From the IMG/VR virus record IMGVR_UViG_3300045988_133004, positions 1 through 52,821 of that record: a DNA stretch of 52,821 bases. One strand, 5' to 3'. Made by a program: the position numbers and the translations under genes. Below are positions 4,623 to 35,510 of this stretch, piece after piece (the stretch's first letter is position 1; every line of letters begins with the position of its first letter). The notes under the pieces were generated by a model. That model made no database searches, had not been told where the DNA came from, and saw nothing but the letters and a program-made list of their open reading frames with translations. The stretch comes from a virus.

Positions 4623-5300
4623 ATGGATAAACAAATAAAAAGTTTAGAAAAAGATTTAAAATTGGTTGATGTAGTTAATAATGAAATCGTGGTATCAAGT
4701 AGACAAGTTGCTGAACACTTTGGAAAAGAACACCGTCATGTGCTTGATAGTATTCGTGATATTTTGGCTGCCGAAATTTCGGCTGCGAAATTTTACCATG
4801 AAACCACATTTGAAAATCGTGGTAAACATTATCCAATGTATCTAATGGATAGGGACGGATTTTCACTCTTGGTAATGGGCTTTAGTGGAAAAGAAGCTTT
4901 AAAGTGGAAAATAAAATATATTGAAGCTTTTAACTCTATGGAACAACGACTCAAATTAATTGAACAGCAAGAGTTAGGTCGATTAATGGAACGCATAAGA
5001 AGCAAAGAAGCTCGCAAGACTTTAACAGATGAAATAAAAGAAACTGTTCCAGAAAGTCCGCATAAAAAGTTTATTTATAAACACTATACAGATTTAGCCT
5101 ATAAAGTAGCGTTTGGAATGAATGCAAAACAATTAAGAGAAAAATTAGGACTAAGCAAAACAGATAACATAAGAGACAACTTAAGTAAAGATGAATTAAA
5201 CAAGTTAATAGGTATAGAAAGTTTAATTCGTGGATATTTGAAGCTTGGTAAAGATTATGATAACATTAAAAATTTAACATCAAATTTATTACCTCAATAA
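4623..5300 (+). CDS. rha: Rha family phage regulatory protein (with ORF6C-like C-terminal domain)
   Basis: N-terminal VSSRQVAEHFGKEHRHVLDSIRDIL...MDRDGFSLLVMGFSGKEALKWKIKYIEAFN matches the Rha family signature. Confidence 0.8.
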   Translation: MDKQIKSLEKDLKLVDVVNNEIVVSSRQVAEHFGKEHRHVLDSIRDILAAEISAAKFYHETTFENRGKHYPMYLMDRDGFSLLVMGFSGKEALKWKIKYIEAFNSMEQRLKLIEQQELGRLMERIRSKEARKTLTDEIKETVPESPHKKFIYKHYTDLAYKVAFGMNAKQLREKLGLSKTDNIRDNLSKDELNKLIGIESLIRGYLKLGKDYDNIKNLTSNLLPQ

Positions 5301-30581: not shown

Positions 30582-31304
30582 TTAACATTCATAGGTAAAT
30601 AATTTTTCTATTCTATCAATACTTTTGCTATTTTCTCTATGACCTAGACCGCACTTTATTTCTTTAGACCATACACATTTAAAATCAGAAGGTGCAACAT
30701 ATTCACTTATAAATATTTTATAACCTTCTCTCGCCTTATTTCTGCACCATTCCCAAAATTCATCATGATTAAAATTGCCTGTTATGTAGCCTGTTGAATT
30801 TTTATACGGCGGGTCGCAATATATCAAACTATTACTAGGGATATATAAATCCTTGTAATCTGAATATACAAAATTAACACCTTTTATGTTATTTAATTGC
30901 TTAAGTATGTTGTTAGAACACTCAATCATATAATTTCTTGATTTACTTGCTCCCTCTTTATACTCTTTCCCAGAATATCCATTCATAAACATTCCCCTAT
31001 AGCATAAAGCGGTAAAACCTACCCACCCAACATAATAATCTGGATATTTATCTTTATTTTCTTTAACTTTTAGAGCTTCTTCTTTTGATATACCTATTGG
31101 CGGTTTATATCCTTTTTGAAGTTCTTTGAATAACGCTATCAAATATTTATTATTATCTGCTCCTATTCTTTTACCGCCAACCTTATCAATGACGTTAGCA
31201 CCACCAACGAAAGGCTCAACCCATGTCATATCTTCTTTTCTGTGAGCTTGCATTATTGGTATTATATACTTTGCTATCCTTGATTTACTGCCCATATATC
31301 TCAA
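30582..31304 (-). CDS. dam: DNA N6-adenine methyltransferase, Dam (D12 class) family
   Basis: MRYMGSKSRIAKYI, EPFVGGANV (FxGxG SAM motif), and the catalytic motif CDPPY. Confidence 0.85.
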   Translation of the reverse strand: MRYMGSKSRIAKYIIPIMQAHRKEDMTWVEPFVGGANVIDKVGGKRIGADNNKYLIALFKELQKGYKPPIGISKEEALKVKENKDKYPDYYVGWVGFTALCYRGMFMNGYSGKEYKEGASKSRNYMIECSNNILKQLNNIKGVNFVYSDYKDLYIPSNSLIYCDPPYKNSTGYITGNFNHDEFWEWCRNKAREGYKIFISEYVAPSDFKCVWSKEIKCGLGHRENSKSIDRIEKLFTYEC

Positions 31305-31315
31305 TTATTATCACC

Positions 31316-31570
31316 TTATACCATTTGCTGTTTAATCTTATATCTACCATTGGCGGTCTTAGCACGGAAAATGTAAAACTCCTTGTAACGTCTTTTTACT
31401 ATGAAGTCGAACGCACTTTTAATATCCATGAAGTACCAATTCATCTTTACGTTGTTTCTAACTGTCTTAACTATGAAGAATGTAACCTTACTACCGCAAC
31501 TTATGATGTCGCTTAATTCAATGTTACTCTTAATGTTGCTTAGCAACTTTATCTTTTCTTGTTTCGTCAT
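31316..31570 (-). CDS. hypothetical protein
   Basis: RBS aggtgag 5 nt before ATG at 31570 (MTKQEKIK..). The longer ORF to 31618 lacks an RBS. Confidence 0.5.
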   Translation of the reverse strand: MTKQEKIKLLSNIKSNIELSDIISCGSKVTFFIVKTVRNNVKMNWYFMDIKSAFDFIVKRRYKEFYIFRAKTANGRYKIKQQMV

Positions 31571-31636
31571 GTTCTCACCTACTTTGTATTTTCTACTCAA
31601 TCTCTTGACAACCAACAATCAATCAACTAATGCTGG

Positions 31637-32016
31637 TAGAGAGTTAACTCAAGAAGCGTAGTCTTTGCCCCCGCCACTTGGGGGACGTTAAAGACCACGT
31701 TAAAAGTTCTAATGCTGTATATCGAGCTGAACTCTTTCGCTTCATCTAAACCACCTAAGAGCCTAGGTCTGCCGTTATCTCCACAACTGCCACGTTGTAC
31801 GGTGGTTCGCCTCACTTACCTTATCAATGGTATCACAGGACGGTTTTGTATATGGTGATAAAATCCATATACGCAGTACAAGGAGTTTCACCCTGTACGC
31901 ATCTAGGATTGTCTTACCCTCTAACGGCAACTGACACTGTGGCAAGCAGTGAATTTTATTTTAAGGTGGTTTGAATATCAACACCCGCATTTTTCAAGTT
32001 GCGGTTTAACTCTCTA
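31637..32016 (-). ncRNA. large structured RNA of unknown class (5' leader or stand-alone RNA of the leftward early transcript)
   Basis: 11-bp closing helix 32006-16/31637-47. Nested helices 31966-73/31748-55 and 31921-29/31771-79. Several hairpins. Three G-U pairs valid only on the minus strand. No credible ORF. Visibly more G+C-rich than its surroundings. Confidence 0.6.
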
Positions 32017-32029
32017 TTAACTTAACTAC

Positions 32030-32058
32030 ATTATATCATTATATATTTTTATTGTCAA
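32030..32058 (-). promoter_or_regulatory. consensus SigA promoter, leftward (TTGACA-17-TATAAT)
   Basis: Reverse complement reads ttgacaataaaaatatataatgatataat. Confidence 0.7.
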
Positions 32059-32064
32059 TAGGTA

Positions 32065-32093
32065 TTTACAAATTTATTTTAATGTGCTATAAT
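32065..32093 (+). promoter_or_regulatory. SigA-type promoter, rightward (TTTACA-17-TATAAT, TGn)
   Basis: tttaca 32065-70, tg 32085-86, tataat 32088-93. Confidence 0.6.
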
Positions 32094-32133
32094 AAATTTA
32101 TTCCTTTTATCGCTAAATTTCTATAGAAAGGTG

Positions 32134-32162
32134 TTGACAAATTAAAATTAATATAGTATAAT
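32134..32162 (+). promoter_or_regulatory. consensus SigA promoter, rightward (TTGACA-17-TATAAT)
   Basis: ttgaca 32134-39, tataat 32157-62. Confidence 0.75.
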
Positions 32163-32169
32163 ATAAACA

Positions 32170-32840
32170 TAGACAATTTAATAAAGCATTTATGAGTTTC
32201 TCATAAAAGACCCATGTTTATCTTTATTCAATTTATTTGGGGGCGAAAGCTCCCAATACATAATTTGATATCTTTATCAAGTATACATTATAACCATGTG
32301 TAAACGTTCTAATCAAACCTCATGGAGTGCTGGTTTATTGAGTAGGGTTGTAGTGGGATACTGCTATAATTGAGCTTTTATTTATTGGTAACAGTAAATA
32401 ACAATTGGGTAAACCAAAAGAAGTACAGCACGTACAAATTATAACGCTAGTTAAAACACAAGTTGTATGGCGGTGATAATAAACGACCCTGTGGGTAATA
32501 ATCAGCTATGCCATTTAGCTTACAACTAAATCGAGCTAACTGAAATGTAAAAGTAAACCGTGTGGCTTTGAAGTATAGAAATATACTATAACATATTACT
32601 TGGTTAAAGTAGCATAATAGCCTATTTGATGATAATACGTAATTTGTTAATTACAATTTTATAATCCGAATGATATGTGAAATTTGCAGACAAACATTTC
32701 TGCGTGAGGTAAAAGGGGGCAAGAAGTTATAAGGTAGCTCCTTATAGCTAGGACTTGTCTTTCTCACTGGTTGAATAAGCTAGAAGTTATAAAGAGTAGA
32801 GTGAAAGCTCATAATGTATACTTAATAAAGATATCAAATA
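32170..32840 (+). ncRNA. large ornate structured RNA directly upstream of tRNAs (ROOL/GOLLD-class candidate)
   Basis: ~670 nt without an ORF between a consensus promoter and two tRNAs. GAAA-tetraloop hairpin 32238-55. Nested stems 32461-67/32521-27 with 32467-71/32510-14, and 32704-08/32763-67 enclosing ggcaag/cttgtc and ataagg/ccttat. G-U pairs valid on + only. Confidence 0.55.
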
Positions 32841-32841
32841 A

Positions 32842-32918
32842 ACGTGAGTGGTGGAATAGGCATACACACAAGTCTTAGAAACTTGATTTTGAAGGTTCGA
32901 GTCCTTTCTCACGTACCA
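32842..32918 (+). tRNA. tRNA with anticodon UAG (Leu by anticodon) but a 5-nt variable loop (class I architecture), A73, encoded CCA
   Basis: Hand-folded: acceptor ACGTGAG/CTCACGT, D-stem GTGG/ACAC, anticodon stem CAAGT/ACTTG, loop CTTAGAA, T-arm GAAGG-TTCGAGT-CCTTT. Confidence 0.75.
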
Positions 32919-32921
32919 TAT

Positions 32922-32998
32922 GATGATATAGCCAAACTGGTTAAGGCGAAGGTCTGCAAAACCTTTATTTCTCGGTTCAAGTCCGAGTATCATCTCCA
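32922..32998 (+). tRNA. tRNA-Cys (GCA), U73 discriminator, encoded CCA
   Basis: Hand-folded: acceptor GATGATA/TATCATC, anticodon stem AAGGT/ACCTT, loop CTGCAAA, T-arm CTCGG-TTCAAGT-CCGAG. Confidence 0.85.
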
Positions 32999-33061
32999 CG
33001 AAAGAAATAAGCAAGATACATCTTAACAAAAATAATAACTTTACTACATCTTGCACAATTA

Positions 33062-33095
33062 AAGCACTTAGTATAATGCTAGGTGCTTATTTTGT
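33062..33095 (+). terminator. terminator closing the ncRNA-tRNA transcription unit
   Basis: aagcacttag/ctaggtgctt 10-bp stem (U-G valid on + only), then attttgt. Confidence 0.6.
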
Positions 33096-33114
33096 ATATA
33101 AGGAGTTCGGAAAT

Positions 33115-33474
33115 GTGAACAAATATGATAAATTAATTGATTGGTTATGCTATAAATATAGTATACTTCATAGACTAGAAATAAGACATCAGAAAAGCAT
33201 TAAGGTTAGATATAGAAAAAGAAACTACATAACTAGAATAGTTAATAAGAAAAAGAGTTATGTTTTCAGATTACCAGATTTTGATAAACTATATTTTATA
33301 TCAGATGAGGATAAACACAAGTTGATAATAAGTGAATTTATCAGATTTTTCTTAATTGGTGCGGTTTATAAGAAAATTAAGAATGAAAACCATTTAAGAA
33401 AGGTAATTATGAACAATACAGAAAAACTATATTATCTGTATAATAAGGAGGTGTTAGCAGGTGGCAAAGTATGA
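33115..33474 (+). CDS. basic hypothetical protein (probable GTG start)
   Basis: aaggag 9 nt before GTG at 33115. ATG at 33076 lies inside the terminator hairpin. Confidence 0.5.
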   Translation: MNKYDKLIDWLCYKYSILHRLEIRHQKSIKVRYRKRNYITRIVNKKKSYVFRLPDFDKLYFISDEDKHKLIISEFIRFFLIGAVYKKIKNENHLRKVIMNNTEKLYYLYNKEVLAGGKV

Positions 33475-33922
33475 CCAATGGAATACAGAAGAAGGCTTTA
33501 TTAAAATTGAAGGTTGGGCAAAAGATGGCTTAACAAATGAGCAGATAGCCCAAAAAATGGAAATAAACAGAATTACATTATATAATTGGTCTTTAAAAAA
33601 TCCTAAGATTGCAGAAGCTCTCAAAAAAGGAAAAGATGTTATTGATAGAAAAGTTGAGAACTCTCTCTTAAAGCGTGCGTTAGGTTATGAGTATGACGAA
33701 ACGACCACAATCACAGATAGTGAAGGGAACGAAACAACGAAGGTTATAAGAAAGCATGTAATACCAGATACAACGGCTCAAATATTCTGGCTTAAGAACA
33801 GAAAACCTACAGAATGGCGAGATAAACGAGAATATAAAGACAATGAAGCACTTGAAAAACTCGACAAAATTCTTAGTAAAATACCTAATAAATTAGAAAA
33901 AGGTATTAACAAAGATGTTTAA
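33461..33922 (+). CDS. terS: terminase small subunit
   Basis: HTH LTNEQIAQKMEINRITLYNW, ..LLKRALGYEYDE.., IPDTTAQIFWLKNRKPTEWRDK, directly upstream of terL. Confidence 0.8.
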   Translation: MAKYDQWNTEEGFIKIEGWAKDGLTNEQIAQKMEINRITLYNWSLKNPKIAEALKKGKDVIDRKVENSLLKRALGYEYDETTTITDSEGNETTKVIRKHVIPDTTAQIFWLKNRKPTEWRDKREYKDNEALEKLDKILSKIPNKLEKGINKDV

Positions 33923-35510
33923 TTTTAGTAAAAACCAGCTAGAATATTTAAATGACGCTTGCCATAGATGGAACATAAAAAGCGGTGCAGTAAGAAGTGG
34001 AAAGACTTACCTTGATATAGCTGTTGTTATACCATGTAGGATAAGAGCAGTAGCAGGAAAAGAAGGATTAACAGTATTTCTAGGCAATACCAAAGGCACA
34101 ATACAACGTAACGTAATTGAACCGCTCCAGCAAATGTACGGCAAAAATTTAGTTAGTAGTATAAGGGCAGATAATACCGCCACAATATTCGGTGAAAAAG
34201 TTTATTGCTTAGGTGCAAGCAAAATAAATCAAGTAGATGTTTTGCGTGGTATGTCAATCAAGTATTGCTACGGTGATGAAGTTGTTACATGGTGTAAAGA
34301 AGTATTTGAAATGCTTAAATCTCGACTTGACAAGTCTTATAGTCGCTGTGATTTAACATGTAACCCTGATAGTCCTTTGCATTGGTTCAAGGAATTTATT
34401 GATAGTGATGTTGATAAATACTTGCAAGAATACACGATTGATGATAATCCATTCTTACCAGAAGAATTTGTAAGAAACTTGAAAAAAGAATATGAAGGCT
34501 CCGTTTGGTATGATAGGCTTATATTAGGAAAATGGGTACGTGCGGAAGGTCTGGTTTATCCTATGTTTTATAAAGATAAATATTGCTTTACAGAACAGCC
34601 AACAAAAAAATATGAGCAGTATTATATAAGTGCAGACTATGGTATATTAAACCCATTTAGTGCTGGCTTATGGGGTAAATATAAAGGTAAATGGTACAGA
34701 ATTACAGAATATTACCATGATGGACGTAAAACGAATAAACAATACACAGATGAAGAATATTACAATAAACTATTAGACCTTGCAGGTGATTTGCCAATTA
34801 GAAGTATAATTATCGACCCGTCGGCAAGTTCTATGATTGCCACTATTAGAAAGCATGGAAAGTTTAATATTAGGAAAGCAAAAAATGACGTATTAGAAGG
34901 AATTAGAAACACCGCCACCGAATTAAACAAAGGTAACATACTCATAAACTCTAACTGTAAAGCCTTCATTAATGAAATTGAGGGGTATAGTTGGGACAAG
35001 GATAACATAAAAGAGGATAAGCCACTAAAAGAAAACGACCACTGTCTTACAGGTGATACAATAATAAATACAATAAATGGTGATATTCCTATTAAAGATT
35101 TAGTAGGTAAAAGTGGAATTGTTAAAGCTTATGACACATATAACAATAAAGCTGTAACTGCTAAATTTAAAGATGTTAGAGTTACACAGAAAAACGCAAG
35201 AGTATTTGAAGTAAAGCTTAATAGCGGTAAAATAATAAAAGCAACTGCTGAACACCCTATATACACTAAAAGAGGGTGGGTAATGGTAAGAGATTTAAGA
35301 ACAGATGATACTATCTTAGATATAAATATTGGATATTCTTATATCTATAGTATAACTTTTGATAGCTTTCAAGATGTGTATAATATGGAAGTTGAAAAAT
35401 ATCATAACTTTTCTATAAATGGCGGTTTGATAGTTCATAACTGCATGGACGATTTTAGATATTTTGTTAATACAGTAGTAGCACGTGGTAATACGTTCGA
35501 GGTTGCTTAA
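33915..35510 (+). CDS. terL: terminase large subunit, interrupted by a mini-intein
   Basis: Walker A GAVRSGKT, Walker B-like YCYGDEV, nuclease motif ENDH/..MDDFRYF split by the Hint domain. Confidence 0.9.
   Translation: MFNFSKNQLEYLNDACHRWNIKSGAVRSGKTYLDIAVVIPCRIRAVAGKEGLTVFLGNTKGTIQRNVIEPLQQMYGKNLVSSIRADNTATIFGEKVYCLGASKINQVDVLRGMSIKYCYGDEVVTWCKEVFEMLKSRLDKSYSRCDLTCNPDSPLHWFKEFIDSDVDKYLQEYTIDDNPFLPEEFVRNLKKEYEGSVWYDRLILGKWVRAEGLVYPMFYKDKYCFTEQPTKKYEQYYISADYGILNPFSAGLWGKYKGKWYRITEYYHDGRKTNKQYTDEEYYNKLLDLAGDLPIRSIIIDPSASSMIATIRKHGKFNIRKAKNDVLEGIRNTATELNKGNILINSNCKAFINEIEGYSWDKDNIKEDKPLKENDHCLTGDTIINTINGDIPIKDLVGKSGIVKAYDTYNNKAVTAKFKDVRVTQKNARVFEVKLNSGKIIKATAEHPIYTKRGWVMVRDLRTDDTILDINIGYSYIYSITFDSFQDVYNMEVEKYHNFSINGGLIVHNCMDDFRYFVNTVVARGNTFEVA
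35043..35441 (+). mobile_element. mini-intein (133 aa, Hint domain, no homing-endonuclease domain) in terL
   Basis: Block A CLTGDT, block B TAEHP, blocks F/G VYNMEVEKYHNFSINGGLIVHN followed by +1 Cys. Confidence 0.85.

Follow-up and report, generated by a model that had tools for sequence, protein, structure and literature searches.

What kind of transcript is made from several hundred nucleotides (nt) that lie between strong promoters and a pair of tRNA genes in a viral genome? The question is raised by positions 32170-32840 of IMG/VR record IMGVR_UViG_3300045988_133004, all 52,821 nt of which were analysed here (the window). An initial annotation, made from the sequence alone, read this stretch as a non-coding RNA of about 670 nt joined to a two-tRNA operon, proposed that it belongs to the ROOL/GOLLD class or is a new relative of it, and suggested a search with Rfam covariance models as a check. 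Such a search bears out the class proposal and narrows it to ROOL. The whole window was scanned with Rfam 15 at curated thresholds, and the three matches obtained are ROOL and the two tRNAs. The ROOL match (RF03087; 32270-32829, + strand; E-value 1.2e-67) scores 298.3 bits, three times the gathering score of 99.1, and covers model positions 1-574 of 574, which is the full length of the model. For GOLLD, no part of the window gave a match at the gathering score, and a permissive scan of 31200-33200 gave none down to an E-value of 5. The RNA is a member of the ROOL family and adds no class, so the notion of a new relative can be set aside. We are highly confident that 32263-32841 is a ROOL gene residing in an RNA-only cassette of an uncultured low-G+C tailed phage.

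The fold of the RNA was examined by threading its sequence through the ROOL consensus structure, with shuffled sequences as the control. Standard pairs form at 129 of the 151 ungapped consensus pairs (85%), as compared with 40 +/- 4% in the shuffles. Some of the failing pairs reflect an error of register, as at 32686-90/32699-703, where GCAGA/UCUGC forms a perfect stem. This helix covaries across ROOL subgroups, appearing elsewhere as GUAGG/CCUAU, ACUGG/CCAGU and GGAGG/CCUCC. The closing helix, P1, pairs 32263-32291 with 32811-32839 over 29 base pairs (bp) with one mismatch, and runs 13 bp past the model. The minimum free energy (MFE) of the + strand is -162.6 kcal/mol (z = -7.1), 31 kcal/mol more stable than that of the reverse complement, and the unconstrained MFE fold recovers P1 plus many of the consensus hairpins. 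The loop motifs of the family (GGGAUAC, GNRA loops and GGUAGCUCC) are also kept. These results confirm that the structure of the stretch is beyond chance.

Measured from the first to the last pair of P1, the structured RNA spans 32263-32839, or ~577 nt, close to the family mean of 581 nt (PMC5737381) and inside the range of about 500-660 nt that was taken as the size expected of a ROOL; 32840-41 form a 2-nt tail before the first tRNA. The large structured RNA of the initial annotation is thus real, but it is shorter than the ~670 nt claimed, 32170-32262 being a leader outside the ROOL model. In covariance-model score, multi-junction structure (with its closing helix P1, three-way P3a/b/c domain and nested junctions), size, and location in a phage with tRNAs on the same strand, the RNA has the features by which family membership was judged, and the published setting of ROOL, in phages with same-strand tRNAs directly adjacent, agrees with that in the window (PMC5737381, PMC12286853).

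Most of the helices that had been picked out by eye fit this picture. GTGAG/CTCAC, ggcaag/cttgtc and ataagg/ccttat all agree with the family consensus, and the GAAA-tetraloop hairpin (32238-55) exists and has been kept by the strains, although it sits in the leader and outside the ROOL model. The proposed helix AGTTGTA/TACAACT (32461-67/32521-27) did not hold up, as the family consensus lacks it and it is in conflict with a helix of that consensus: the 32461-67 strand belongs to the helix 32459-69/32592-602, and 32521-27 is the loop of the hairpin 32511-17/32527-33. The seven perfect bp between 32461-32467 and 32521-32527 are mutually exclusive with the consensus fold. Similar 6-nt complementarity between loop and strand is found in the ROOL subgroup of loci L104 and L001 and is weak in the L093 subgroup, and the pairing may have arisen by chance or may reflect another fold or a swap of strands between protomers. 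Pseudoknots and tertiary contacts such as P10 and P13 are described for the family; the one pseudoknot candidate seen by eye in the window, AGCU 32517-20 with GGCU 32564-67, is weak at 4 bp. The impression that the stretch is visibly more G+C-rich than the genome also proves slight, because ROOL has 32.1% G+C versus 30.5% for the window (32.6% for the right-hand genes); the truly rich parts are the tRNAs (42%) and a divergent minus-strand leader (43%).

The window RNA resembles other family members in its full-length model match, multi-junction fold, conserved loop motifs and A/U-rich variable linker, as well as in its length, phage location and adjacent same-strand tRNAs. The linker loop (32618-32672, + strand) falls in the alignment on the model's long unpaired loop. 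This segment is not conserved in the family, and in the env-120 structure it is disordered within the cage (PMC12286853). The RNA differs from the model in that the hairpin aligned to positions ~445-460 is deleted (an 11-nt gap), the apical stem is short, and the closing helix is lengthened to 29 bp. The long closing helix was considered as a peculiarity of the window and rejected, since L104 and L001 have ~31 bp. By blastn, similarity of the RNA to most other ROOLs is undetectable, and on that account it forms its own sequence subgroup with three relatives, L109, L334 and L329. No match was found when 32000-33120 was compared by blastn with 50,697 phage records (INPHARED set), a null result that is uninformative on family novelty because the divergence between ROOL subgroups is beyond the reach of DNA similarity searches.

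All three of these strain-level relatives, which were recovered by pattern scans, carry the cassette. L109, a 52.4-kb IMG/VR contig, is ~95% identical to the window and L334 (CYGL01000612.1) ~95.5% identical, while L329 is 99.3% identical and its contig ends inside ROOL at 32539, so that apparent differences beyond this point are alignment artefacts. When the window was compared with L109 and L334, the protein genes orf132, small terminase (TerS) and large terminase (TerL) (33096-35042) diverged by 4.7-6.9%, ROOL (32263-32841) by 1.9%, and the tRNAs (32842-32998) by 0-1.3%. Five of the 11 differences in ROOL fall in the linker, at 32646-61, and in the hairpin 32799-32810 both substitutions, U32802C and C32808U, keep pairing. 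The first of the tRNAs is identical in L109 and has one difference (32853) in L334. ROOL is thereby shown to be under purifying selection relative to its flanking genes. The first part of the leader (32170-32234) behaves in the opposite manner, with 36 of 65 positions (55%) differing, including a 24-nt indel at 32201-32224, whereas 32235-32289, from the GAAA hairpin to inner P1, is invariant in all three relatives. Because the upstream leader is scrambled and this segment is not, the functional RNA appears to start at or just before the GAAA hairpin, and the promoter-proximal 65 nt would be dispensable.

These data bear on whether the stretch might be nothing but the leader of a two-tRNA operon, fortuitously structured and discarded after tRNA processing. 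Its position between the tRNAs and the only strong promoters would suit such a role, and A/U-rich sequence of this length gives many hairpins by chance. However, chance cannot account for a full-length match at three times the gathering score, nor for 85% of consensus pairs forming where shuffles give 40%; the region is better conserved than the protein genes around it, unlike the scrambled true leader at 32170-32234; and ROOL relatives from other genera accumulate to high levels as stable RNAs. We consider this explanation extremely improbable and, in practice, refuted. The probability that the RNA is instead a GOLLD, or belongs to a separate ornate-RNA class that merely resembles ROOL, is close to nil. 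GOLLD occurs in the same genomic context of phages and tRNA arrays and is likewise a large ornate RNA adjoining tRNAs that forms protein-free cages, but its sequence and fold are unrelated to those of ROOL, making the two analogous and not homologous, and it is the ROOL model that is matched end to end while the GOLLD searches described above came back empty. A coding reading of 32170-32840 was also rejected: as had been noted initially, there is no credible open reading frame (ORF), with no + strand ORF of more than 38 aa lying wholly inside, and an 89-aa minus-strand ORF that overlaps the tRNAs is spurious.

How, then, is the ROOL RNA expressed and matured? The tandem promoters of the initial annotation were found again. 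The main one (TTGACA-17-TATAAT; 32134-32162, + strand) is a perfect 12/12 match that is kept in all three strain-level relatives and has a predicted transcription start at ~32169-32171, and the upstream one (TTTACA-17-TATAAT; 32065-32093, + strand) matches at 11/12 positions with an extended -10 TG, its hexamers being unchanged in L109, L334 and L329. Such perfect and near-perfect sigma-70 promoters would agree with strong expression. Promoter-like sites inside ROOL are only weak, the best matching at 9/12. The variable 5' leader (32170-32234, + strand) is not part of ROOL, and the GAAA-tetraloop hairpin that follows it (GGGGGC-GAAA-GCUCCC; 32238-32255, + strand) lies 7 nt upstream of the closing helix. 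A hairpin just 5' of P1 is present in L104 and L001 as well, and the one in the window is a candidate for a protective hairpin at the mature 5' end. At the other end of the unit, the terminator claimed earlier is found as a 12-pair stem (33062-33088) followed by ATTTTGT, an intrinsic terminator (33062-33095, + strand) that closes the RNA-only unit. The order of the cassette is therefore tandem promoters, ~93 nt of leader, ROOL, 2 nt, tRNA-Leu, 3 nt, tRNA-Cys and terminator.

The two tRNAs of the initial annotation were found by Rfam and called by ARAGORN as tRNA-Leu(UAG) (32842-32918, + strand; 77 nt, CCA encoded, A73, short variable loop; 61 bits) and tRNA-Cys(GCA) (32922-32998, + strand; 77 nt, CCA encoded, U73; 66 bits). 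The tRNA-Leu has a 5-nt variable loop and not the long arm expected of a tRNA-Leu, with the Leu-type D-arm and A73 being kept. A similar 78-nt tRNA-Leu(UAA) is encoded at 5050-5127 of L274, a phage locus discussed below. In the late genes of the window, 13% of the leucine codons are CUA.

The junction between ROOL and the first tRNA is the most informative feature for maturation. The 3' arm of P1 ends at 32839, 2 nt ahead of the start of tRNA-Leu at 32842 (12 nt separate the end of the model from the tRNA), and there is neither room nor a good promoter match between the two, so the tRNAs would be made only by transcription through ROOL. We propose that the host sigma-70-type RNA polymerase produces a single precursor from the tandem promoters, and that ribonuclease P (RNase P) would cut this precursor at 32841/32842, generating the 5' end of tRNA-Leu together with a ROOL 3' end 2 nt past P1. 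Given the position of the P1 arm, RNase P cleavage would release ROOL. The geometry of the junction hence predicts that a single RNase P cut frees both the cage RNA and the first tRNA. The unconserved 5' leader would be trimmed, probably back to the GAAA hairpin, to give a released ROOL of ~580-605 nt. In L. salivarius, a distance of 225-450 nt separates the ROOL promoter from the mature RNA downstream of it, as mapped by rapid amplification of cDNA ends, implying 5' processing (PMC5643018), and by analogy maturation of the window RNA to the conserved hairpin is plausible. The arrangement is like tRNA-punctuated processing, as in rRNA operons with spacer tRNAs and in mitochondrial tRNA punctuation, in that the 5' end of a tRNA adjoins the helix that closes a large structured RNA, and it is like the well-established rRNA processing stalks, to judge from the long terminal duplex that joins both ends. 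It differs in that the partner is a ROOL cage RNA and not rRNA, and in that cleavage here is a prediction.

Whether this geometry is particular to the window can be judged from a further 19 loci with confirmed ROOLs; together with the window they represent ~11 lineages (a first pattern scan for ROOL had returned 120 loci, of which 11 were true ROOLs). Wherever there are nearby tRNAs in these lineages, every one is on the ROOL strand, and the association with phages or prophages and same-strand tRNAs holds in most of the 19 loci. A tRNA starts between 8 nt inside and 28 nt beyond the 3' end of the ROOL model in the window and in L356, L346, L351 and L358, and in the L094 group the 3' end of a tRNA abuts the 5' end of ROOL. 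ROOL has previously been located in phages and prophages near tRNAs, and co-transcription with them was suggested (PMC5737381). The recurrence of a tRNA at the 3' end in four further lineages, and at the 5' end in one case, makes coupled ROOL-tRNA maturation a testable general hypothesis. Two full-length ROOLs come from Bacteroidota, at 935-1499 of L355 and 3429-3999 of L364 (329 and 338 bits; a Bacteroidaceae bacterium and Segatella copri), and unlike the Firmicutes and phage copies they have no tRNA within their 8-kb loci.

An alternative is that ROOL is matured independently of the tRNAs, either by another nuclease or with the tRNAs having a promoter of their own, and that the 2-nt spacing is an accident of genome compaction. 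In L360, L080, L104, L001, L355 and L364, and on the 3' side of ROOL in the L094 group, a tRNA is absent or 116-186 nt away; the L. salivarius ROOL is matured with no tRNA neighbour reported (PMC5643018); and a 29-bp duplex would be a plausible substrate for RNase III, as the rRNA processing stalks established elsewhere suggest. What makes this alternative very unlikely for the window is that 32829-32842 leaves no space for a promoter and the matches inside ROOL are no better than 9/12, that RNase P must cut at 32841/32842 for tRNA-Leu and would define the 3' end of ROOL regardless, and that a tRNA lies within ~30 nt of the ROOL 3' end in four further lineages and at its 5' end in another. We therefore retain processing at the tRNA junction as the preferred account of how the window ROOL acquires its 3' end.

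Mature ROOL would be expected to self-assemble, free of protein, into a closed homo-oligomeric cage. Cryo-electron microscopy has resolved such cages for three other ROOLs: env-120 forms an octamer (PMC12286853), and the E. faecalis ROOL forms an octamer while the L. salivarius ROOL forms a hexamer, a difference that lies in a short apical stem (PMC12990946). The equivalent stem in the window (32486-96) has 4 bp and a 3-nt loop. The loop GGUAGCUCC (32733-41) holds a self-complementary AGCU, which is compatible with the reported 4-bp contact between identical loops if our mapping of that contact is correct. Few natural RNAs are known that, like ROOL, build protein-free cages larger than the ribosome. 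To our knowledge, the literature establishes no cellular function for the family. Since the ROOL of the window would of necessity be expressed together with tRNAs, an arrangement that recurs elsewhere, it can be suggested with low confidence that the cage acts on the supply of tRNA or on translation during infection, for instance by serving as a sink or a shelter for RNA or for protein. In L. salivarius, ROOL is highly abundant and stable (PMC5643018).

Several points weigh against the interpretation of the cassette as a cage RNA matured together with its tRNAs. The ROOLs of L104, L001 and the Bacteroidota loci L355 and L364 have no close tRNA, so tRNA-coupled maturation is not obligatory for the family. 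Promoters, terminator, RNase P cut and 5' trimming have each been predicted from the sequence. The covariance model ignores pseudoknots and the contacts between subunits that define the cage, and a choice between hexamer and octamer is not predictable for this RNA because the apical stem that decides it is short (4 bp). The suggested function, finally, draws on association. A specialist would not be surprised to find a ROOL beside tRNAs in a Firmicutes phage; the layout in the window is nonetheless unusually clean, with one perfect promoter, ROOL, two tRNAs and one terminator in a 52-kb phage.

A second structured RNA may lie on the opposite strand. Back to back with the ROOL promoters is a divergent promoter (TTGACA-17-TGnTATAAT; 32030-32058, - strand; 12/12 with an extended -10), which is followed by a leftward non-coding leader of ~410 nt, from 32025 to 31619, that precedes a 100-aa ORF and a D12-class adenine methylase. 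This 409-nt leader (31619-32025) has 0-2 differences among strains, versus 3-7% in the flanking genes. Its core (31749-31861, - strand) gives a full-length match to the EGFOA family (RF02955) of 27.1 bits, which falls below the gathering score of 37.7 (E-value 0.007 in a 601-nt search); the core is taken for a diverged member of this family. With nhmmer, ~330 nt of G+C-rich, conserved leader (31985 to 31655, - strand) are homologous to 5277-5567 of L274 (E-value 7e-9), whose element is a bona fide EGFOA (61.6 bits) located beside a tRNA. An alignment of ten distinct sequences gave a covariation of 0.53 for the stem of the core hairpin, whose loop is AUAAmGGCAGACCUAGG, versus 0.26 +/- 0.08 in shuffles; one of 500 shuffles reached as high a value, and slid registers gave at most 0.22. 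The alignment was ascertained by way of the loop motif, so the invariance of the loop is itself no evidence, and the closing helix is unregistered in the MAFFT alignment, so that only the core hairpin was counted. The leader therefore combines homology to members of the family with a covarying core hairpin.

The EGFOA-like RNA shares with the family the motifs ACCGUCCU and AGACCUnGGC, a hairpin with an invariant loop, and location in an unusually large gene-free region. It differs in scoring below threshold, in having a 20-nt insertion where the EGFOA model has 14, and in lying inside a conserved leader of ~330 nt that runs into an ORF without a terminator. Contained in this leader, at 31935-31951, is a hairpin that on the + strand resembles a terminator (CACTGTGGCAAGCAGTG, then a T-run); no + strand gene ends there, and read from the minus strand it is an ordinary hairpin of the conserved leader RNA. 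In L274, the tRNA-Leu(UAA) mentioned above is just upstream of the EGFOA, and between the two is an 84-nt element (5131-5214) that matches the tmRNA model end to end with 76 bits. It is far too short for a transfer-messenger RNA and is probably the tRNA-like domain only. When the EGFOA pattern ACCGTCCT...AGACCTNGG was searched for in viral contigs, the hits were mostly chance matches in G+C-rich coding DNA, from which a stem-length filter failed to separate true cases. L268 had a promising stem and was rejected as EGFOA, being unrelated on alignment.

EGFOA RNAs form trimers and strand-swapped dimers (bioRxiv 10.64898/2026.07.01.735769), and since ROOL and EGFOA are both self-assembling, the window would hold two self-assembling RNA families back to back. 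A general association between the two was rejected on both sets of loci: none of the 19 other ROOL loci has an EGFOA that reaches the gathering score (a threshold that the diverged copy in the window also fails to reach), and the other EGFOA-like loci contain no ROOL. One can imagine that the 1.5-kb gene-free island (31619-33114) is a dedicated module in which ROOL, EGFOA and the short tRNA-Leu act together. Under such a scheme an RNA cage and an adaptor would, for example, store, shield or deliver phage tRNAs, and the RNase P cut at the ROOL-tRNA junction would couple release of the cage to release of the tRNA. We regard this scenario as unlikely. Should the placement of a diverged EGFOA opposite ROOL not be coincidental, it would give a first indication of different self-assembling RNAs being put to use jointly.

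With respect to the phage genome, the cassette marks a point of divergence, with the early and replication genes (Erf, DnaB helicase, a replication initiator and the methylase) transcribed leftward and structural genes rightward; terminase, portal, head and tail genes flank ROOL. Downstream, a 119-aa ORF with no assigned function is followed by the small terminase, large terminase, portal and head genes, in agreement with the initial view that the unit precedes the packaging genes (small terminase at 33461-33922, then large terminase and portal). Eighty loci with TerS relatives (50-70% identity) contain no ROOL detectable by nhmmer, and the 14 closest of these contain none detectable by the covariance model; TerS-anchored loci consequently gave no ROOL homologues of intermediate distance for covariation analysis. 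Because phages with related terminases lack the cassette, it is an accessory RNA module, and the unit from promoters to terminator would behave like a moron-type insertion that carries RNA genes only.

Directly upstream of TerS in two of these loci is a single tRNA (4758-4830 in L125 and 4503-4575 in L151), in the same slot as the cassette of the window, which raises the possibility that RNA genes insert repeatedly at this point. Identity of the window's large terminase to those of gut and rumen Firmicutes phages does not exceed 53%. Its ORF (33915-35510, + strand) contains a Hint/intein splicing domain at residues ~391-509 (nt ~35085-35442; PF14890, PF07591), and phage homologues align only to residues ~378-404, a pattern that suggests a mini-intein near the C-terminus.

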